The notes under the pieces: generated by a model
Told to the model about the DNA's origin: nothing
Databases searched by the model: none
Seen by the model: only the letters and a program-made list of their open reading frames with translations
NCBI GenBank assembly: GCA_046758705.1
Contig: JBHIAT010000008.1
Span: 1 to 43,782 of the forward strand
DNA from: Candidatus Bipolaricaulia bacterium
GTDB taxonomy: Bacteria; Bipolaricaulota; Bipolaricaulia; JBHIAT01
Length of the DNA: 43,782 nt
Direction: 5' to 3'
Shown here: one piece after another, positions 3,547 through 25,524 of the stretch
Numbering within the stretch: position 1 is the stretch's first letter
Layout of the letters: every line of letters begins with the position of its first letter
Position numbers and translations under genes: made by a program

Positions 3547-4335
3547 ATGACAACAGAAACAGAGCTGGTAATCAGCGGGTTGCGTGCCAAGGTTGCGGAA
3601 CAAGACGACGAGGAGATCCTGAACGGGGTTGACCTCAAGATCGGTAAGGGCAAGATCCATGCCCTGATGGGTCCCAACGGCTCGGGGAAGAGCACATTAG
3701 CCTACATCCTCATGGGCCATCCGTCGTATGTAGTGACCGCCGGGGAGGTCTGGTTCAAGGGCAAGAATCTGCTTGACCTAGATCCCGACGAGCGGGCCCA
3801 TCTCGGGTTGTTCCTGGCGTTTCAGTACCCCATGGAGATCGAAGGGGTACCGCTCTCCCACTTCCTGTGGACATCGGTCAAAAGTCGCCGGGAGGCCGGC
3901 AGGGATGGCGGCCCCGGAACCGTCCGCGAATTCAGGGCACTCCTCAAGGAGAAAGTCAATTTGCTGGGTCTGGACGAGTCGTTTGTGAACCGTTACCTCA
4001 ACGAGGGGTTCTCCGGGGGCGAGAAGAAGCGGGCGGAGATCATCCAGATGCTCGTCCTGAACCCGGAGATCGCCGTTTTAGATGAGACCGACTCCGGTCT
4101 GGACATCGATTCGATCAAGATCGTCGCCGAGGCGATCAATCAAATGCGGGGACCAGATTTCGGAGCACTGATCATCACCCATTATCAGCGCATCTTGAAC
4201 TACATCAAGCCTGATTTCGTCCACGTCATGGTCAACGGGAAGATCGCTCAGAGTGGTGATGAGACCCTGGCTCACGAACTCGAAGCACGAGGATACGACT
4301 GGATCATCGAGCAATACCAGGAGCAGGAGGTGTGA
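3547..4335 (+). CDS. sufC: Fe-S cluster assembly ATPase SufC
   Basis: GPNGSGKST, FLAFQYP, NEGFSGGEKKR, LDETDSGLDID and IITHYQR motifs; first gene of the suf operon; GGAGG RBS. Confidence 0.97.
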   Translation: MTTETELVISGLRAKVAEQDDEEILNGVDLKIGKGKIHALMGPNGSGKSTLAYILMGHPSYVVTAGEVWFKGKNLLDLDPDERAHLGLFLAFQYPMEIEGVPLSHFLWTSVKSRREAGRDGGPGTVREFRALLKEKVNLLGLDESFVNRYLNEGFSGGEKKRAEIIQMLVLNPEIAVLDETDSGLDIDSIKIVAEAINQMRGPDFGALIITHYQRILNYIKPDFVHVMVNGKIAQSGDETLAHELEARGYDWIIEQYQEQEV

Positions 4336-14123: not shown

Positions 14124-15275
14124 GTGAAACACGTAAAATTGGCCAAGAGAAACTACCCCCGAAATGCACCGTGTTGGTGCGGCTCGGGAAAGAAGTACAA
14201 ACACTGCCATCTAAGCAGAGAAGAGCAAGAGCCCGTAAACCCGTGGGATGCAGTAAAACGACAGCGGCAGGCTTTCTCCTGGCGAGCATGCCTTCACCCT
14301 CAGGCGAGCCCCGGTACGTGCTCCGGTCAGATTGTCCGGGCACACACGGTCCGCCGTTCCGCAGACCTACTGCGCATTGCCAGGCAGGGTCACGTCTATC
14401 ATGTCAGTACAGATTTCAAGATGCTTCAGGCTAGTGGTGGCATCCTTGAACCCAGGCTTGTTGGGATCAACCAAGCGTCCACCTTTTGGGGCTTCTGCGC
14501 GGGCCACGATTCGGAGACATTTGCCCCACTCGAAGCGCAAACGTTCAGAGGAGACGCTGAACAGTGTTTCCTCCTTGCATACCGGCCGCACGTGAAAGAA
14601 CTGTACCTGAAGGAGTGTACAAAGGCTTCCTTACCCATATATCGGGAGGCAGATAAGGGAAAGCCAATCTGGCACCAAATAATGATCCAGGAGTTCGCAG
14701 AAGCATTTGAATTAGGTATCCAGAGTGCCATTGAAGATCTAGGAAGCCACAAGCAAGCGTATGATGCAGATCTCCTGTCAAAGGATTTCAGCCACATTCG
14801 AGCCATAGCCATCCATCTCGATCGGAGCCCCGAGATTATGTGTAGTGGTATTATGCAACCTCACTTCGATTTCTTGGGGAACCAATTGCAAGACCTAGCC
14901 GATCTGGACGAGCGACTGGACATGCTGACGATGTCACTCATCGCTAATGAAGAGCATGGGGCTGCTGTATTCGCATGGAGAAACGATAGCGATCGTTCAT
15001 GTCGAGCCCTGATAGAGACGCTCCTTGAAATGAAAATTGAGGCAATACCTTACGCATTGGTTCGGTTTGCATTTGATTCATTTGAAAACCTCTACATGGC
15101 ACCTGACTGGTGGGAAAATTTGTCTCCCGAAGCCCAAGGTTCTCTACAGCAACGCATGATGGCTGGACTGCCCAACACCCCAACCTCACTGGACGGGCTT
15201 CTGGACGATGGACTACGACTCGTGCAGTGGAAGGTAACGGAAATTCAATCGGTTAACGTTGATATTTCTGTCTAA
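14124..15275 (+). CDS. SEC-C (zinc-binding) domain protein, gene cassette
   Basis: RNAPCWCGSGKKYKHCH SEC-C motif, plus further Cys/His motifs (CLHP...CSGQIVRAH, FCAGHD). GTG at 14124 is the first in-frame start downstream of the promoter. Confidence 0.82.
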   Translation: MKHVKLAKRNYPRNAPCWCGSGKKYKHCHLSREEQEPVNPWDAVKRQRQAFSWRACLHPQASPGTCSGQIVRAHTVRRSADLLRIARQGHVYHVSTDFKMLQASGGILEPRLVGINQASTFWGFCAGHDSETFAPLEAQTFRGDAEQCFLLAYRPHVKELYLKECTKASLPIYREADKGKPIWHQIMIQEFAEAFELGIQSAIEDLGSHKQAYDADLLSKDFSHIRAIAIHLDRSPEIMCSGIMQPHFDFLGNQLQDLADLDERLDMLTMSLIANEEHGAAVFAWRNDSDRSCRALIETLLEMKIEAIPYALVRFAFDSFENLYMAPDWWENLSPEAQGSLQQRMMAGLPNTPTSLDGLLDDGLRLVQWKVTEIQSVNVDISV

Positions 15276-15336
15276 TTAGCGGTTCGAGCAGGACGTGGCG
15301 AACAAGTCGCCACACCTCTCAACCGCGCCGTTAGGC
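15270..15336 (+). repeat. attC site 1
   Basis: R'' GTCTAAT (degenerate), L'' GCGGTTCGAG pairing with L' CTCAACCGC with one extrahelical base, central GTGGCGA/TCGCCAC stem, R' GTTAGGC. Confidence 0.88.
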
Positions 15337-16749: not shown

Positions 16750-16839
16750 GCCTAACCGCTCGTTGGAGCGAACGCAGGATGCGCACGCCATCATGGCCGA
16801 AGTTGCGATCCTGCACTGCTCAGCTCGCAACCGTTATCG
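16750..16839 (+). repeat. attC site 2
   Basis: R'' GCCTAAC, L'' TCGTTGGAGC, GCAGGAT/ATCCTGC stem, L' GCTCAGCTC, R' GTTATCG. GTGTTGCCTAAC (16745-16756) complements the cassette start GTTAGGCAGCAC (15330-15341) at 11/12 positions. Confidence 0.88.
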
Positions 16840-17472: not shown

Positions 17473-17535
17473 GCTTAACCCCTCGCTGGAGCGGACCTGT
17501 GCTACCGTGGGCCGCTCAGTTCGCGATCGTTATGC
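17473..17535 (+). repeat. attC site 3
   Basis: R'' GCTTAAC, L'' GCTGGAGCGG pairing with L' CCGCTCAGT, R' GTTATGC. Confidence 0.87.
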
Positions 17536-17562
17536 GGCTTTGACTGTTGAGGAGGTATAACG

Positions 17563-18744
17563 GTGACTACGGCTTCAAGGGGTTCGTCCAAGAGACGAGT
17601 TGTGGTTTTAGGGGCGGGTTTCGCAGGGCTGACTATCGCATCTGAGTTGGATTCTTTGGCAGCCACAGGGAAGGCAGACGTTACGCTGGTGGACCGAAAG
17701 ATCCACTTTAGTGTAGGCTTTTCGATGCAGTGGGTCCTGGTTGGAAGAAGAAAACCCGAGGACGGGCAGAGACCCTATACGTCTCTACAGGCTCGCCACG
17801 TTAAATTCATCCATGACGAGATTGTCGCCATCGACACAGCCGAACAGGCGGTCCACACAAGGTCCAAGCATCTGAATTACGATTACCTCGTAATCGCCCT
17901 GGGAGCCGAACTGGCGCCTGAGCTCGTGCCAGGCCTCCCGAGGGGCGGTTACGACCTGCATGATATGGACTCTGTCATCCAGTTGAAGACGGCATTGGAA
18001 GGCATAGACAGCGGCACAGTTGCCATCGTGGTTACATCAGTACCGTTCAAGTGTCCACCGGCGCCCTACGAGTACGCAATGTTGATTGACGATATGCTAA
18101 GAAACCGCGGAGTCCGCGAGAACGTTCGCGTCGTAGTGTCTACGCCGGAGCCGCAGCCTATGCCTCTCGCGGGAAAAGTAGTGGGAGATGCCATAAAATC
18201 GCTGCTGGCCGATCGCGGGATTGAGTATCTTCCACAGCATAAGTCGACTTCGGTGGACAACATCGGACATAAGATAATCTACGAAAACGGTTGGGAGCTT
18301 TCGTATGATGTTCTCGGCGCGGTCCCGCCACACCGGGCACCTGGGGTCGTGCGGGATGCCGGTCTCACAAACGAATCGGGCTTCGTTCCTGTTGACCTCT
18401 GGAGTTTCGAGACTTCAGTGCCGAATGTGTATGCTGTGGGAGATGTTGCGTCGCTCAGACTCCCTGACGGGAGGCCCCATCCGAAGGCGGGGGCTTTCGC
18501 AGAGGCTCAGGCTTCCACGTTGGCAAGAAACATAGTAGCGCAACTCGCCGGTGGGGAAACCGCAAGGTATAGCGGCATAGGCGTGTGCTTTGTAGATGCT
18601 GGAGGCGACATGGCGGCCGCCGCCGAAGCAAACTTGCTGGCAGACGGAGGGCCCTAGTTCACGATGAATCCGCCCTCGGAGGAGGGCCTCGAGCGTAAGC
18701 GCCAGTTCGAGCGTGAGCGTCTGGTCAGATGGTTCGGCGGGTGA
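17563..18744 (+). pseudogene. Sulfide:quinone oxidoreductase-like FAD-dependent oxidoreductase with a premature TAG at 18655-18657
   Basis: VVVLGAGFAG, YDYLVIALG, FKCPPAPYE, YAVGDVA and PKAGAFA motifs. The frame continues past TAG (FTMNPPSEEGLERKRQFERERLVRWFGG*) to 18744, and the duplicate copy near 25371 has CAG at this position. Confidence 0.8.
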
Positions 18745-18770
18745 CACTCCACCGGCTCGAATTTACTACA
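18542..18770 (+). repeat. Direct repeat copy 1 (229 bp; 3' end of the oxidoreductase gene)
   Basis: Near-identical to 25258-25489. Confidence 0.95.
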
Positions 18771-18809
18771 TCTGCGTGCGTTTAAGGTACCGTCGGTCCG
18801 TCTAGTGGG

Positions 18810-18965
18810 CTACGCACAGCCCTGCCACCTCGACCAGATCGGCAGGGCCTGGGCTTCGAACAGGGAACAGCCCAGCCCTTCCTGAGCGCGCGTGATGAAG
18901 ACCTGGTCGAGGATCTTGACGGTCAAGCGATGGAGTTGTTCACGGGCGGGTGATTGTCGTACCAT
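18810..18965 (-). pseudogene. Truncated DUF1670-like gene (N-terminal remnant)
   Basis: AGGAGG RBS (18980-18975), then MVRQSPAREQLHRLTVKILDQVFITRAQEGLGCSLFEAQAL, then an apparent frameshift (the alternative frame continues DLVE). The resemblance to DUF1670 N-termini is from memory. Too short for the ORF track. Confidence 0.55.
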
Positions 18966-19030
18966 ATTGGCGGTCCTCCTGTTTGAGTGGAGACCTTAGC
19001 TCCACATTTAACAGGTACCTGCTATATGGC

Positions 19031-19046
19031 ACAACTATAGTTAGGC
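19031..19046 (+). other. attI-like recombination core (ACAACTATA-GTTAGGC) opening the next cassette
   Basis: GTTRRRY core at 19040-19046 with no upstream attC hairpin. GTTAGGCAGCA is identical to the cassette start at 15330. Confidence 0.5.
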
Positions 19047-19132
19047 AGCAGAAGTACAAGGAGAATCGTCTTCAACAAGATCAGTATCATCACTGCCGCG
19101 CATGAGCGTTCACGGCAGGATCTACCTTGCCC

Positions 19133-19161
19133 TTGAATCCCCCTCTCATTTGGGATATCAT
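19133..19161 (+). promoter_or_regulatory. Promoter of the DUF4160/DUF2442 cassette
   Basis: TTGAAT (19133-19138), 17 bp spacer, TATCAT (19156-19161). Confidence 0.55.
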
Positions 19162-19224
19162 GGTACTGAACGGACACGCCCGGACGGTGCGATTGCGTCC
19201 AAGACATGAACATAGAGAGAATAT

Positions 19225-19485
19225 ATGCCCCGCATCAGCGAATTCTTCGGTATAGTGATTTTCATGTACTACAATGACCATTCACCACCGCATTTTCACG
19301 CTGAATACGGTGAGCATGAAGCTGTCTATGAGATCGAAACGATCGAAGCACTAAGAGGCAAGTTGCCCCGTCGTGCCCATGCGTTGGTCGTGGAATGGAC
19401 GACATTGCACCGCGCTGAGTTGAAAGGGAATTGGGATAGGGCACGAGCAGGTTTGCCGTTGAAAAAGATTGAGCCCCTTGACTGA
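19225..19485 (+). CDS. DUF4160 family protein (putative toxin of a DUF4160/DUF2442 pair)
   Basis: MPRISEFFGIVIFMYYNDHSPPHFHAEYG...LVVEWTTLHRAELKGNW...IEPL signature. Confidence 0.9.
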   Translation: MPRISEFFGIVIFMYYNDHSPPHFHAEYGEHEAVYEIETIEALRGKLPRRAHALVVEWTTLHRAELKGNWDRARAGLPLKKIEPLD

Positions 19486-19504
19486 CACAGGGAGGTGTTG
19501 CTTG

Positions 19505-19786
19505 ATGACAAAACCGGGTCCTTTAGTACGCGTTCGATCTGTAGAACCGCTTGAGAAGTTTAAGGTACGGCTGGAATTCGAAGATGAGACACAAAAAGAG
19601 ATTGATCTGGAACCCTACCTGCACGGACCTATCTTCGAGCCGATTCACAATGATCTGACAACGTTCCGTTCTATGAAAGTCGAAGACGGCACGATCGCCT
19701 GGGACAACGGAGCGGATATAGACCCCGATGTGCTCTATTACGATCTGAGACCTGCCTGGATGGAAGAAACAGAATTGGTTCAGTAG
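19505..19786 (+). CDS. DUF2442 family protein (putative antitoxin)
   Basis: VRSVEPL...LEFEDE...DLEPYLHGPIFEP...GTIAWDNGADIDPDVLY; GGAGGT RBS. Confidence 0.9.
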   Translation: MTKPGPLVRVRSVEPLEKFKVRLEFEDETQKEIDLEPYLHGPIFEPIHNDLTTFRSMKVEDGTIAWDNGADIDPDVLYYDLRPAWMEETELVQ

Positions 19787-19797
19787 GCCCAAGAGCC

Positions 19798-19825
19798 GCT
19801 TAACTCGTCGTTGCAGCCGACCGCG
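19798..19825 (+). repeat. Truncated attC (left arm only)
   Basis: R'' GCTTAAC plus L'' TCGTTGCAGCCGAC; no matching L'/R' downstream. Confidence 0.65.
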
Positions 19826-19858
19826 CTATCAAGGCAGTTTCTGAGGAAGAATGTGCTT

Positions 19859-20635
19859 ATGAAGAGACCAAAAGTAGTCGTCCATACGGTTGCCTCAGTA
19901 GACGGAAGGGTAACACTTGCGCCAGATGTCCTATTGGGATTTGGGGACGAAGAAAGAGAAAGATGGGAGGCCCTCGCGGGGTCAGGCGAGGATGCAGATG
20001 CATTTTTCAAGTGGCTCGAGTTCGTTCACAACCCACAAGTCCTTCTTGAAGGCAGTGGCACTTTTGTCAGGGAGGGCGATGAGCCCAAGCCGCTCCCACC
20101 TTTCGAGGGTGATCCCAAAATGCTGTATCAGGACTTCCTGCCAGAAGCTGCTGTCCATCGTCCGGGACAGCGAGGATGGTTCACAGCTGTGGATAGTCGA
20201 GGACGTGTCCAGGGGTGGATGAAAGAATTTGAAGGATGGGAAGGGTGGCATATACTGATCCTAGTTGCCCATCATACGCCATCCAAGTATCTCGCCTATC
20301 TCCAGCGCGAGAATATTCCCTACCTGGTAGCAGGAGAAGAGCGAGTCGATCTCCGGCTTGCCATGGAGAAGCTGGGATCCCGGCTGGGAGTTACATGTGT
20401 CGTGTCAACGGCTGGAGGCAAGTTAAACGGCGCGCTCTTGCGTGCCGGGCTTGTGGACGAAATCAACATTGAGTTCTTCCCCGCCATCATAGGCGGCTTT
20501 GAGACGCCATCGCTGTTTGACTCGCCAGCATTAAAACCCGACGAGTGGCCAACCCAGCTCAAACTAATCTCCACCCAAGTTCAACCTGAGGGGCGTATAT
20601 GGCTTCGTTATGAGGTAGTGCACGAGGGAGAGTAA
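19859..20635 (+). CDS. RibD C-terminal/dihydrofolate reductase-like family protein
   Basis: MKRPKVVVHTVASVDGRV, VDSRGR, YLAYLQRENIPYLVAG and GGKLNGALLRAGLVDEI motifs. Confidence 0.88.
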   Translation: MKRPKVVVHTVASVDGRVTLAPDVLLGFGDEERERWEALAGSGEDADAFFKWLEFVHNPQVLLEGSGTFVREGDEPKPLPPFEGDPKMLYQDFLPEAAVHRPGQRGWFTAVDSRGRVQGWMKEFEGWEGWHILILVAHHTPSKYLAYLQRENIPYLVAGEERVDLRLAMEKLGSRLGVTCVVSTAGGKLNGALLRAGLVDEINIEFFPAIIGGFETPSLFDSPALKPDEWPTQLKLISTQVQPEGRIWLRYEVVHEGE

Positions 20636-20647
20636 ATCGCACAAGCG

Positions 20648-20673
20648 GCCTAATAATCTAATAATAGTTCTGC
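20648..20673 (+). repeat. Collapsed attC or attI-like junction
   Basis: GCCTAAT, a 12-nt AT-rich spacer, then GTTCTGC. GTTCTGCATG (20667-20676) is the exact reverse complement of CATGCAGAAC (21631-21640) at the end of the next cassette. Confidence 0.65.
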
Positions 20674-20700: not shown

Positions 20701-21666
20701 ATGCTCATCCATGGTGAAAGGCAATTCCTTCAAACACCTTTCGATGACGAGAACGAGATCGAGCAGGTGGTAGTTGATAACGCCGACTATATCTTTGGCC
20801 CGGGCTCAATCTATCTTCCCAAACGAGTGCTTCGGACTCTCGACGATTACGGTACGGTTCCCGATGGCTTCGTAGTCGATATCCCGAATCGGCAGTGGTT
20901 CATTGTTGAGGCGGAGCTGTCCAGCCACAGTGTGTGGGGCCACATCGCCCAACAAGTTGCCAAACAAATCGTGGCTGCGACGCGGCAAACCACCAAACGT
21001 CTTCTTGCAGAGATGGTCGTCTCAGCAGTGCGCGAAGATGATGATCTCATGGAGAAATTTACGGATGAAGGAATCGACCCCATAGACGTCAGGGGAGTCC
21101 TGTCAGAGTTGTTCGAAAAGGACCCCATTGTCGGCATGCCGATTGATTCAATCTCTAATGATCTGCGCGCATGGGCTGAAACGCTGAGAGTCGACGTCAA
21201 GTTGTGGACCATACGGAAATACGTCGACTTCAATGACTCATCCAACATTGTGTATGAGATCCCAGAAGAATACAGACCGGACTTTGACACCACCGAGGAA
21301 AACGAAGTGCGTAGGACGGGTATAGCCCATTATGACGTTTCAATCGCTGATCTTATCCAAGCTGGCCTCCTCACAGCGGGACAAGAGTTGACCATGCCGT
21401 ACAAACCTCGACAAGGTGAGAGAAGAACATACACTGCAGTAGTCCAGGCAAACGGCTCTCTGCAAGTCCTTGGCAAAACCTTCAGCAGTCCTAGCTATGC
21501 TGCTCTCTACGGCATTCAAGATGCAGGTAGTGACCGGAGGACTGTAAACGGCTGGATCAGTTGGAAGGACTCCGAGGAAAGGACCCTCGCGGAGCTTCGA
21601 GAAGAATACATGCACCAACAGGAATCCGACCATGCAGAACAAGCGGATTCGGCCGACGAGAAATAG
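20701..21666 (+). CDS. PD-(D/E)XK nuclease-like domain fused to a C-terminal RAMA (DUF4357-like) domain, gene cassette
   Basis: N-terminal ENEIE...VPDGFVVD...WFIVEAELSSH; C-terminal IADLIQAGLL...G.LQV.GKTFSSPSYAA...NGWISWK...TLAELR RAMA pattern. Confidence 0.8.
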   Translation: MLIHGERQFLQTPFDDENEIEQVVVDNADYIFGPGSIYLPKRVLRTLDDYGTVPDGFVVDIPNRQWFIVEAELSSHSVWGHIAQQVAKQIVAATRQTTKRLLAEMVVSAVREDDDLMEKFTDEGIDPIDVRGVLSELFEKDPIVGMPIDSISNDLRAWAETLRVDVKLWTIRKYVDFNDSSNIVYEIPEEYRPDFDTTEENEVRRTGIAHYDVSIADLIQAGLLTAGQELTMPYKPRQGERRTYTAVVQANGSLQVLGKTFSSPSYAALYGIQDAGSDRRTVNGWISWKDSEERTLAELREEYMHQQESDHAEQADSADEK

Positions 21667-21709
21667 GCGCGGTGCGCCCATTCCTCGCGGCTGATCCTTG
21701 CCGTTAGCC
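21634..21709 (+). repeat. attC site 4 (overlapped by the 3' end of the gene)
   Basis: R'' GCAGAAC, L'' GGATTCGGCCG pairing with L' CGGCTGATCC, CGAG..GGCGC/GCGCC..CTCG stem, R' GTTAGCC. Confidence 0.88.
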
Positions 21710-21863
21710 CGCACAAATAAACGCGTTGGTGAAATCGAAGTGATGAAAGCAGCGAACTCTCAAGAGTGGTGGCGTGACCCCAGGTGCCATTTTGGCGAGT
21801 TGAAAAGGGTAGGTGAGATAGACCACCAAAGGCGATAAAGTGCAAAGTGCGGGTTAACACCTC
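21704..21863 (+). other. Minimal (about 160 bp) cassette with at most a 31-aa ORF (21743-21838)
   Basis: The start GTTAGCCCGCAC (21703-21714) complements the end GTGCGGGTTAAC (21847-21858) at 11/12 positions. Confidence 0.7.
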
Positions 21864-21870
21864 GTTAGGC
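21852..21870 (+). repeat. Collapsed attC (R''-ACCTC-R', L boxes deleted)
   Basis: GGTTAAC-ACCTC-GTTAGGC. The same TAACACCTCG start is seen in the next attC at 22447. Confidence 0.72.
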
Positions 21871-21924: not shown

Positions 21925-22452
21925 ATGCGTCGACTGACACACAGAGAAATGCTTGCGGCCGAACTCTTTGGATACAGCTATGCCAACTACGAGGATCATC
22001 TCGGGATCGGCAATGTGCGTTTCGAAGCGCTGATGCCGCGCGAGGTGGATATCCTTGAGAAGGCTGAGCGAGAAGGCTGGGATAAGGCTCGGATCGCCCA
22101 AGAGCTCAGCATGCCAGAAGCCAAGGTCGAGGGTTGGCTGATGAAGTACCGGGAAGCGAAAGAGATCGTCGATGCACCGACCCTTGTGCAGGCCTTTCGT
22201 CGCGGGGTGAGACAGTCGATCGAGAAGGCAGTTGAAGCGGGGTGGGGTGATAGGGCATCGATCGAGCGGCTGGTGACGCAAATCTGCTATCGGGCAGCGG
22301 ATCTTGCCTATCGGCTGGACATGGAAGGCCAGCGATTGTCGGATCTGTCAGAGGAGTTACGGGAAGAAACAGAATACGATGAGGAGTACTGGAGGAAGGT
22401 GCTGCAACGGGAAATGGGAGAGGAGCCCGAGACGGGCGAGGGCGCTGCCTAA
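21925..22452 (+). CDS. Hypothetical protein, gene cassette (175 aa)
   Basis: ATG after AAAGGA; stop TAA lies inside R''. The cassette start GTTAGGCAGC (21864-21873) complements GCTGCCTAAC (22444-22453) at 10/10 positions. Confidence 0.8.
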   Translation: MRRLTHREMLAAELFGYSYANYEDHLGIGNVRFEALMPREVDILEKAEREGWDKARIAQELSMPEAKVEGWLMKYREAKEIVDAPTLVQAFRRGVRQSIEKAVEAGWGDRASIERLVTQICYRAADLAYRLDMEGQRLSDLSEELREETEYDEEYWRKVLQREMGEEPETGEGAA

Positions 22453-22475
22453 CACCTCGCTGGACGCGCGGACGC
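22447..22475 (+). repeat. Truncated attC (left arm only)
   Basis: R'' GCCTAAC plus L''-like TCGCTGGA..GCGGACG; no right arm. Confidence 0.62.
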
Positions 22476-24791: not shown

Positions 24792-25259
24792 ATGGCACGT
24801 AAGAGAATTGGGAAGCTCCTTCCTCGCTACTCGTTTATCCTCAATCCTTATTCCGATGAACGCCTAAGCAGATGCCCAAAGTGTAGGAAATTGACACATT
24901 TCCGGAAGTTTGCTTTGTTCATCCACATTGATGGCTGGGGGCCAATAATGCTCGGCAAAACCTGCAGGTATTGCACGCCATGCGAGTTGATTATGGCTCA
25001 CCAGGATGAATTGGAAACCGAGTTGGCTCATTCCTTTTCCTCATTGGCCCCTGAAGTCATCGGAAACGATTATATCGTCTTGGGCACCGTGGACAAGAAG
25101 GTCTGGAAGCGTGGTCTTGAAGGGAATAACCTTCAGCTTCAAGAGATGCTCAAGTATATGGCAGAGTTCAAGAGGGTTCTGAAACTGGAGGTAGAGCCAG
25201 GAGGATGGTATCCGGTCAGCAAGGGTGCAAAGAAACGATCGACAAAAAGAGCTACTTAA
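24792..25259 (+). CDS. Hypothetical Cys-rich (putative zinc-binding) cassette protein
   Basis: RCPKC and CRYCTPC motifs; stop TAA lies inside the R''-like ACTTAAC (25254-25260). Confidence 0.8.
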   Translation: MARKRIGKLLPRYSFILNPYSDERLSRCPKCRKLTHFRKFALFIHIDGWGPIMLGKTCRYCTPCELIMAHQDELETELAHSFSSLAPEVIGNDYIVLGTVDKKVWKRGLEGNNLQLQEMLKYMAEFKRVLKLEVEPGGWYPVSKGAKKRSTKRAT

Positions 25260-25489
25260 CTCGCCGGTGGGGAAACCGCAAGGTATAGCGGCATAGGTGC
25301 ATGCTTTGTAGATGCTGGAGGCGACATAGCGGCCGCCGCCGAAGCAAACTTGCTGGCAGAGGGAGGGCCCCAGTTCACGATGAATCCGCCCTCGGAGGAG
25401 GGCCTCGAGCGTAAGCGTCAGTTCGAGCGTGAGCGTCTGGTCAGATGGTTCGGCGGGTGACCTCCACCGGCTCGAGAGAATTTACTACA
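25258..25489 (+). repeat. Direct repeat copy 2 (3' fragment of the oxidoreductase gene, without the premature stop)
   Basis: Near-identical to 18542-18770; has CAG where copy 1 has TAG. Confidence 0.95.
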
Positions 25490-25494
25490 GTTGC

Positions 25495-25524
25495 TTGACT
25501 GTGTCAATTCTCATCTGTTAGAAT
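25495..25524 (+). promoter_or_regulatory. Promoter of the tRNA-tuf cluster
   Basis: TTGACT (25495-25500), 18 bp spacer, TGnTAGAAT (-10 at 25519-25524). Confidence 0.65.

Follow-up and report, generated by a model that had tools for sequence, protein, structure and literature searches.

The stretch of DNA analysed here, hereafter the window, is a complete 43.8-kb contig (C8) of the 3.7-Mb metagenome-assembled genome (MAG) of Candidatus Bipolaricaulia bacterium (GCA_046758705.1; 319 contigs). At positions 18825–19039 it carries the remnant of a gene for a DUF1670 (PF07900) protein, called gene A below, together with the DNA that precedes this gene, and it is the origin of this remnant that concerns us. 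A first-pass annotation, made from the sequence letters alone, had described here a minus-strand open reading frame (ORF) with its ribosome-binding site (RBS), a hairpin, a palindrome and two cassette-like junctions, and all of these features are found where it had placed them. At the first junction ACAACTATA abuts GTTAGGCAGC, with the G at 19040 lying 75 bp from the ATG of the remnant; the second, CTAATAATA-GTTCTGC, has its G at 20667. The features of the locus are as follows.

18771–18824: 54 bp between the end of a direct repeat and the truncated gene A; presumed deletion junction, bridged by a Logan contig
18810–18965, minus strand: called ORF of 51 aa
18825–18965, minus strand: fossil of DUF1670 gene A, approximately the first 47 codons, with a 1-nt frameshift after codon 41 (protein search, 14-locus alignment and blastn)
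18966–19039, minus strand: left end (LE) of the element; boundary conserved in 14 loci, LE motif in 93 of 96 loci
18975–18980: RBS AGGAGG of the minus-strand gene (plus-strand CCTCCT), 9 nt before the ATG
18978–19015: two-part hairpin of the 5' untranslated region (5'-UTR), CCTGTT/AACAGG plus GTGGAG/CTCCAC
19012–19021: palindrome CAGGTACCTG of the LE
19021–19034, plus-strand reading: terminal-repeat core GCTATATGGCACAA of the LE
19035–19039, plus-strand reading: CTATA of the LE
19040–19046, plus strand: GTTAGGC, R' core box of an interrupted attC and start of the DUF4160/DUF2442 cassette

The resemblance to DUF1670 N-termini that the first-pass annotation had suspected was borne out by protein searches. 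Among 5.8 billion sequences, 40 of 42 candidate longer proteins matched the 51-aa remnant (E-values of 1.9e-11 to 4.6e-8), which aligned with the N-termini of ~290-aa proteins at 70–85% identity across the first ~41 residues, and 39 of these 40 proteins carry PF07900. A direct Pfam search with the 51-aa ORF returned no family at E ≤ 0.1 and no PF07900 match above 25 bits, so that the family assignment stands through homology to full-length PF07900 proteins and not through a match of the remnant itself. In full-length A proteins the PF07900 model starts at about residue 39, so nearly all of the fossil corresponds to sequence N-terminal of the modelled part. In the alignment, the frameshift shows up behind ...FEAQAL as a gap of 1 nt, and beyond about codon 47 no homology is left. 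By blastn, positions 18825–19045 are 79–84% identical at the DNA level to full elements, with the match ending at 18825; what remains in the window is the left end plus 139 nt of gene A, 215 bp in total.

Using a full-length relative as the query, we collected 96 loci, comprising 16 from GTDB genomes, all of them titled as Anaerolineae, Anaerolineales or Chloroflexi MAGs, and the best 80 of 194 metagenome matches. The 54 bp at 18771–18824 had no match in these loci or in the window's own genome. Across that genome, PF07900 gave one weak partial match (contig C99), and blastn and tblastx searches with 18740–19230 found no paralog. Other contigs from the window's metagenomes matched only the 34-nt left end (19011/19013–19046) and diverged on either side of it.

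An alignment of the upstream regions of 14 loci was conserved inward from T(A/C)TAG-TTGTGCCAWWTGGCAGGTACCTGT and locus-specific outside it, and the right boundary of the element, at ...CTACACGCCAWWTGGCACAATC, was equally sharp. The two ends form terminal inverted repeats of ~20 bp. A conserved boundary at DUF1670 loci had been anticipated by the first-pass annotation, and it takes the form of a sharp ...CAACTATAG end beside GTT-type core boxes. In 49 loci the unit measured 1.90–2.00 kb, with gene A (~290 aa) intact in all 49 and a second gene, gene B (~290–297 aa), intact in 48; the start of gene B overlaps the stop of gene A (ATGA), and the pair is translationally coupled. The complete layout reads target ...GCSGCCTAAC, T(A/C)TAG-TTGTGCCAWWTGGCAGGTACCTGT, hairpin and RBS, gene A, gene B, a tail of ~110 bp ending in ...CTACACGCCAWWTGGCACAATC and, finally, a spacer of the target followed by (G/A)TTRRRY. 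Two hallmarks of an insertion sequence (IS) are thereby present: the unit is bounded by terminal inverted repeats, and its ends are sharp wherever it lies, at many unrelated sites (78 distinct flanks on the left, 51 on the right). As is usual for repeated elements, several contigs terminate precisely where the element does. In five genomes, every copy of the terminal-repeat core was either part of a DUF1670 element or solitary, and none was paired around other cargo; a tblastn search against plasmids gave no match.

With regard to the left end itself, a hairpin with a 5–7-bp stem was found at the same place of the 5'-UTR in all six elements tested, with differing stem sequences (single-sequence folds with non-significant z-scores), and RNAalifold on a MAFFT alignment of 73 left ends recovered only the GCC..GGC palindrome and missed the 5'-UTR hairpin. 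In intact copies CAGGTACCTG lies, as judged by eye, between TTGTGC and a TAGAAT/TAAGAT box, which are 17 nt apart. Read in this way, TTGTGC-17-TAGAAT is a putative promoter of the element and CAGGTACCTG a possible operator; a promoter scan called no minus-strand promoter in the fossil. The window copy is inert, being the dead left end of a ~1.95-kb element.

Around 21 of 49 insertions a 2-nt direct repeat was present, and it was absent from the other 28; permutations gave a mean of 14.5 and a maximum of 20 over 2000 rounds. What is repeated is the opening dinucleotide of the T(A/C)TAG pentamer, found again directly after the right end; the 21 cases include TC/TC three times and AA/AA once. Such a repeat fits a 2-bp target duplication or a short crossover core. 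At the junctions, the constant pentamer goes with the left end and the target's own spacer with the right end, which is the structure of a single exchange at AA|C / AAC|. In the left flank of locus L090 (~2890–2933) there is a partial left end, ..CCCAAC-TACAG-TTGTGC, followed by the AAC-TACAG-TTGTGCC of a full element, which looks like an insertion beside the stub of an earlier copy.

A second DUF1670 subfamily also forms gene-pair elements, here of ~1.83 kb (L131, L148 and L149, on three contigs of MAG G050 of ~2 kb each), with different terminal inverted repeats of 21 bp (TTGGGGTGTAGGCCCCGTACT-like) and, in five readable flanks, no AAC end. Since this subfamily has other repeats and no AAC/GTT target, the link with attC is not a trait of DUF1670 overall, and since its repeats are its own, terminal repeats co-vary with the DUF1670 genes. 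Repeat-bounded gene pairs are thus a general DUF1670 habit, and attC targeting is specific to the subfamily seen in the window.

The target of this latter subfamily is apparent from its flanks. Of the 78 distinct left flanks, 58 end in AAC, compared to a background of 1.2% at a fixed position, and their consensus GCSGCCTAAC is the reverse complement of an R' box and cassette start, GTTAGGCAGC. On the right side, (G/A)TTRDRY lies within 18 nt in 17 of the 51 distinct flanks (2.3% background), and the strict GTTRRRY in 4. For the recognition of complete attCs, a relaxed heuristic finder was dropped, as it matched coding regions and missed known attCs. The strict heuristic finder was too strict for rebuilt empty sites, and a covariance model, R1, was therefore used instead. 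R1 was trained on 13 attCs, none of them DUF1670-related: two from the window, two from other contigs of its genome and nine from intI-adjacent arrays in four Anaerolineae genomes. It gave 38 matches in the window and the 96 loci, 35 of them in the loci, and nine in the window's own 3.7-Mb genome among the part of the candidates that was scored. At six distinct sites (L002/L026, L003, L015, L030, L032 and L033) a full-length attC extends 5 nt into the left end, with R1 taking the G+TTGTGC of the left end as the R' box, and in L038 a minus-strand attC uses the element's right end (GATTGTGC) as its R' box. Further flank attCs were matched in L006/L047, L009, L017, L029, L056, L057, L060 and L101. 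Altogether, R1 matched co-oriented attCs in 15 distinct loci, and same-orientation attCs lie on both sides of full-length elements in L006/L047 and L038, as they do in the window. The proximity of attCs to DUF1670 loci that the first-pass annotation had predicted therefore holds for this family, in whose flanks R1 attCs are abundant, but not for the second subfamily, which has no AAC/GTT target. In L026, an attC match (3639–3766) is followed 33 nt on by a group II intron D1–D4 match (3799–4075; 91 bits), with a domain V/VI match nearby on the other strand (2814–2891); it seems that this array holds, besides its DUF1670 element, a group II intron that has entered an attC.

The orientation of the element relative to the array is fixed per subfamily, the TCTAG/AATT type being sense and the TATAG/TACAG type antisense. 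In loci with the ends TCTAG/TAATA (the 'AATT' loci) every R1 match lies on the element's strand, and in all other loci every match lies on the opposite strand. The neighbouring genes conform to the same pattern. Outside the AATT loci, 21 of 32 left neighbours are divergent, starting 1–556 nt from the end, and 11 of 19 right neighbours are encoded on the minus strand; in the AATT loci left neighbours (4/4) and right neighbours (3/3) are co-directional. The window copy, with its TATAG end, is antisense, in line with this rule. The view of the first-pass annotation that the remnant stands where intI would be is also at odds with the sense subfamily, whose left end directly follows an attC body.

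In the window, the remnant lies within a lower-GC stretch of ~14.0–25.3 kb, flanked by a UPF0047 gene and a tRNA-Thr/Tyr/Thr-tuf cluster. This stretch is a plus-strand cassette run (SEC-C protein, Mrr_cat, ParE/Phd, Pyr_redox_2, DUF4160/DUF2442, RibD_C, RAMA and others), whose cassettes are divided by plus-strand attC sites or attC stubs. The cassette start GTTAGGCAGC occurs three times in the window (15330, 19040 and 21864). The sites and the cassette adjoining the remnant are the following.

15270–15336, plus strand: attC, called by eye, upstream of the fossil
16750–16839, plus strand: attC (R1, 50.1 bits; in the R1 training set), upstream of the fossil
17473–17535, plus strand: attC (R1, 54.2 bits; in the R1 training set), upstream of the fossil
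19225–19786, plus strand: DUF4160 and DUF2442 gene pair (Pfam), the cassette after the R' box
19798–19815 and 22447–22464: degenerate attC stubs that keep only the R''-L'' half
20648–20673 and 21852–21870: 'centre-less' attC stubs, an R''-like box joined to an R'-like box
21634–21709, plus strand: attC (R1, 25.2 bits, E 0.003; outside the training set), downstream of the fossil

In the centre-less stubs the R''-like and R'-like boxes are only 5 nt (ACCTC) or 12 AT-rich nt apart, and the four degenerate stubs suggest a decaying array that lacks an integrase. Indeed, no integron integrase was found in the window, and in its genome TIGR02249 scored above cut-off on contig C172 only (C172:49–744; 293+65 bits), at the very start of a short contig without an attI or array assembled alongside. 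With attCs on both sides and intI elsewhere, the fossil sits inside a decaying, integrase-less array and not at an array start. The first-pass annotation had seen the remnant in the place of intI and the junction at 19040 as an attI that opens the cassette run; neither idea survives the position of intI on C172 and the three same-orientation attCs upstream of 19040. Given these attCs on both sides, GTTAGGC at 19040 is a displaced R' box.

With the homology, the element ends, the intact paired ORFs, the target bias, the attC context and the orientation rule established, we read 18825–19039 as the dead left end of an IS-like element that inserts into attC sites, and we put the probability of this reading at roughly 0.72. 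Of the two alternatives offered by the first-pass annotation, the data show the second, in which a mobile element either targets attC/attI crossover points or mimics them. The element would enter the short spacer between the L' and R' core boxes of an attC, always with its left end beside the ...AAC box. It would consequently sit between the attC body and the displaced R' box of that same attC, and the order after insertion would be attC body, element, short spacer plus R' box and next cassette. In the window, the insertion would have occurred just 5' of the R' box GTTAGGC of a plus-strand attC, and a later deletion would have taken gene B, most of gene A, the right end and the attC body, joining the 54 bp at 18771–18824 to sequence downstream of the Pyr_redox_2 gene. 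The first-pass annotation had correctly noted a 'perfect cassette start' at 19040 with no attC hairpin before it (R1 has no match in 18746–19039), and this start would lack its hairpin because the deletion removed the attC body beyond the right end. Proteins A and B would recognise the terminal repeats and direct insertion.

What A and B might do was examined at the protein level. Both belong to PF07900 and are full-length paralogs of each other (hhalign probability of 99.4%, 30% identity), and both carry motifs of the HTH_28/HTH_23/HTH_29/Terminase_5 type according to Pfam. AlphaFold2 (AF2) models, with pLDDT values of 66 and 76.5, are helical with multiple winged helix-turn-helix (wHTH) units and one beta hairpin, and we accordingly describe A and B, as modelled, as multi-winged-helix proteins predicted to bind DNA. 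In the ESM atlas only DUF1670 clusters, or weak HTH_23 clusters at ≤0.82, were found. A DUF1670 profile search returned 1339 cluster representatives (50% identity) at E ≤ 1e-3, among which there are A-B fusions of 520–545 aa (P0141 and P0135, 526–544 aa) and triple DUF1670 fusions of 930–952 aa (P0086, P0100, P0112 and P0133); a fusion to a known recombinase was absent from the best 150 of the 1339 matches. A complex prediction for A plus B (score 0.23, mark 0.32) spoke neither for nor against binding. A tyrosine-recombinase reading of the shared GLR..S / H(R/K) / HS.....Y motifs was rejected, as their spacing is far too short and no integrase fold was among the top 50 VIA matches.

Several observations weigh against an attC-specific insertion element that is moved by A and B. 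The case for movement comes from the comparison of sequences. No recognisable catalytic fold was found in A or B, the N-terminal ~100 residues not having been searched as a separate domain; Foldseek returned nothing at E ≤ 1e-3 with either model, the best VIA matches were wHTH regulators (Z 6.0), and NCBIfam and PHROGs gave no match. The recombinase or transposase fold that the first-pass annotation had hoped for in predicted structures thus did not materialise, the matches being helix-turn-helix (HTH) and wHTH only. Two proteins join DUF1670 to a partial GGDEF domain (P0121 and P0169), and for these a regulator fits better than a transposase. At the target, the strict heuristic finder detected a canonical attC at none of 49 rebuilt empty sites, and only three of the 49 had a short inverted pair of at least 8/10. 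An ungapped hairpin test was negative for left flanks (2/67 compared to a 1.2% background) and modest for right flanks (13/45 compared to 8%). An R1 attC adjoins or includes an element end at only seven distinct sites, the short hairpins present in most right flanks of the antisense type go unrecognised by R1, and one element, L004, lies between apparently core genes (nadC-like and rnpA). Finally, intI was above cut-off in seven of 15 searched genomes with a locus of this family, compared to 65 of 201 genomes of a class sample, which argues against a strong tie of the element to the integrase. Even with intI in four of the six close-family carriers within the same 201 genomes, its enrichment is weak at best, and these genomes are related MAGs in which integron regions assemble poorly. 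In L136 (G218:C12, 14892–16656), an intI gene is followed, ~300 bp past its stop codon and on the same strand, by a left end (flank GGCGGCCTAAC) and a truncated gene A.

The other alternative of the first-pass annotation, a platform for cassette capture, would have the LE (GGCACAAC-TATA) and the adjoining G|TTAGGC act as an attI-like site at which an IntI encoded elsewhere inserts cassettes, with A and B as accessory DNA-binding factors. The sequence GCACAAC-TATA-GTTAGGC does show the layout RYYYAAC-spacer-GTTRRRY, presumably comparable to a simple site of the attI1 type, and the divergence of gene A from its neighbour in 21 of 32 non-AATT loci is what such a platform would have. Moreover, four of 11 chosen locus pairs (L056/L064, L050/L054, L076/L077 and L026/L027) are at least 99.3% identical through the element and one flank and unrelated beyond the R' box, so the junction at the displaced R' box still exchanged neighbours. 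However, swapped neighbours are seen at any cassette boundary between strains, and ordinary cassette shuffling is the simpler account. Same-orientation attCs flank the element on both sides in L006/L047, L038 and the window, a complete attC body lies directly against the left end at six sites, both ends are sharp with flanks that vary between loci at either end, and the enrichment of intI is unconvincing. As originally phrased, the platform is not supported, because of the attCs on both sides and the sharp ends; what is left is a weak form carried by the four neighbour-swapped pairs, and we regard the platform as improbable.

Somewhat less improbable, though still unlikely, is a non-autonomous mobile insertion cassette whose repeats are served by IntI, by another tyrosine or serine recombinase or by a DDE enzyme encoded elsewhere, leaving A and B as passengers, targeting factors or architectural factors. 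The restriction of A and B to HTH/wHTH folds and the existence of DUF1670-GGDEF fusions would suit such a role. The element ends also resemble core boxes (GTTGTGC and GCACAAT), the product has the structure of a single crossover at AA|C with T(A/C)TAG on the left end and the target spacer on the right end, and the 2-nt identity at the junctions is compatible with a short crossover core. Yet in the five genomes the core is never paired around other cargo; 48 of 49 units have kept both genes intact, with A and B coupled in translation, the second subfamily has its own repeats, which argues for co-evolution of repeats and genes, and intI is found in only seven of the 15 searched genomes with a locus of this family. 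By far the least probable explanation is an ordinary two-gene cassette moved by IntI, of which the window would hold a decayed and reversed copy. The unit does lie exactly at cassette boundaries, and in the sense subfamily the upstream attC is completed by the G+TTGTGC of the left end. Nevertheless, it has no attC of its own (no R1 match at its distal end), its final 95 nt, taken with the adjoining flank, form a weak fold (−9 to −14 kcal/mol for 117 nt in five loci), and the 6–8 nt from the right end to the next GTT differ in every locus, which is disallowed for a cassette-borne attC. The inverted terminal repeats and the occurrence of both orientations likewise speak against a cassette.

Returning to the IS-like element, the identity of the enzyme that cuts is a separate matter. 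An activity of A and B themselves, which would be novel, has somewhat less than an even chance; cutting by a host recombinase such as IntI is a weaker candidate, and the remaining probability falls to another enzyme acting in trans. A broader proposal, that a whole class of site-specific mobile elements has gone unrecognised and owes its mobility to DUF1670 pairs, either as a new kind of recombinase or transposase without a known catalytic fold or as hijackers of the integron integrase, is one that we put forward as speculative and rather doubtful. As hijackers, the elements would present core-box-like ends (GTTGTGC / GCACAAT) to IntI and in this way enter an attC, and each insertion would leave an attI-like junction, GCACAAC-TATA-G|TTAGGC, that could still exchange cassettes.

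The assembly around the remnant is matched by Logan contigs (three runs of one study) that span 18716–18983 and 18954–20455 with zero mismatches; since the runs could stem from the very samples behind the window, the match does not count as independent support. Synteny with relatives was uninformative, as the 30 nearest genomes are related at the class level only and none has a close Pyr_redox_2 ortholog. The contig also contains a direct repeat of ~235 bp (18542–18778 and 25258–25497; 96–97% identity), consisting of the 3' end of the Pyr_redox_2 gene and ~30 bp downstream. Both copies begin at AAC|TCGCC, and the right copy begins directly past the R''-like ACTTAAC of the last cassette (24792–25259) and reaches the promoter region of tRNA-Thr. 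The 204-bp core of the repeat is a single Logan unitig at ~2x flank depth, and one contig of run X3 links 25418 to 18703; recombination at an attC-like AAC box and a Campbell-type insertion are both possibilities for its origin. The Pyr_redox_2 ORF stops at an in-frame TAG (18655–18657), and its frame runs 29 codons further to a TGA (18743–18745). The right repeat copy has CAG instead of this TAG, and Logan contigs of X1 and X4 have C, not T, at 18655, so that the stop codon is either polymorphic or the product of a mosaic assembly. In run X4, the attC at 17473–17535 of a related strain has a loop shorter by 39 nt, with 5 nt in its place (17505–17545), and the sequence of this strain departs from the window directly after 18750. 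A promoter-like TTGAAT-17-TATCAT on the plus strand (19133–19161) lies inside the cassette, ~65 bp 5' of the DUF4160 gene. We also considered the AT-rich junction at 20655–20673 as an excision footprint and rejected it, because the order of leftover bases fits neither orientation and R1 has no match there.

Integron arrays are the main gene-capture device of many bacteria. As the window copy is an inert fossil, the value of the finding lies in the element family, which, if correctly interpreted, would provide the first functional context for PF07900 and a tractable 2-kb system in which to study how a multi-HTH pair inserts site-specifically or recruits IntI. When Chloroflexi arrays are annotated, a solitary 'perfect cassette start' that lacks an attC could be explained by such an insertion and its decay, and, should the hijacking of IntI prove true, every insertion would seed a secondary capture site inside the array.

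No paper on DUF1670 or PF07900 was found in the full text of the open-access set and bioRxiv, and several known systems bear comparison. The remnant resembles an integron attI with divergent intI in having a divergent gene, then RYYYAAC-spacer-G|TTRRRY and then cassettes, but no tyrosine recombinase adjoins it, attCs are also present upstream, and the 'L box' is formed by a mobile element's end. Xer-exploiting elements (IMEX) and mobile insertion cassettes are short repeat-bounded units without a recognisable recombinase that may use a host enzyme. For the DUF1670 element, in contrast, no cognate element or host enzyme was identified, and the repeats co-vary with the DUF1670 genes. With IS630/Tc1-mariner elements it shares a possible 2-bp duplication, often TA, the end TA|CAGTTG... 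in 22 loci and motifs of the HTH_23/HTH_28/HTH_29 type, ends and motifs that we take to be typical of IS630/Tc1. A and B, however, lack a DDE (RNase H-like) domain, a pair of paralogs takes the place of the single transposase, and insertion is aimed at an attC core box and not at any TA.

A further comparison is with the IS1111-attC group, on which Tetu and Holmes (2008) and Post and Hall (2009) are said to be the primary papers. This group (ISPst6, ISKpn4 and relatives; IS110/IS1111) inserts at one defined position of attC and in one orientation (PMC11187229), and in this site-specific, oriented insertion the DUF1670 element is alike. Members of the group encode a single seekRNA-guided DEDD transposase and have subterminal repeats, whereas the DUF1670 element has two multi-HTH proteins and true terminal inverted repeats, with no Rfam RNA match in the element and no DEDD (IS110-type) Pfam match in A or B. 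Group IIC-attC introns, described in PMC3001079 as mobile elements specialised on attC in cassette arrays, share this niche with the DUF1670 element but consist of a ribozyme and a reverse transcriptase, neither of which was found in the whole elements L059 and L046. The element family is thus apparently undescribed, sharing the niche of the known attC-targeting elements and none of their machinery. If it is indeed a third, unrelated element that targets attC, alongside the IS1111-attC group and the group IIC-attC introns, the core boxes of attC would be a recurrent landing pad.

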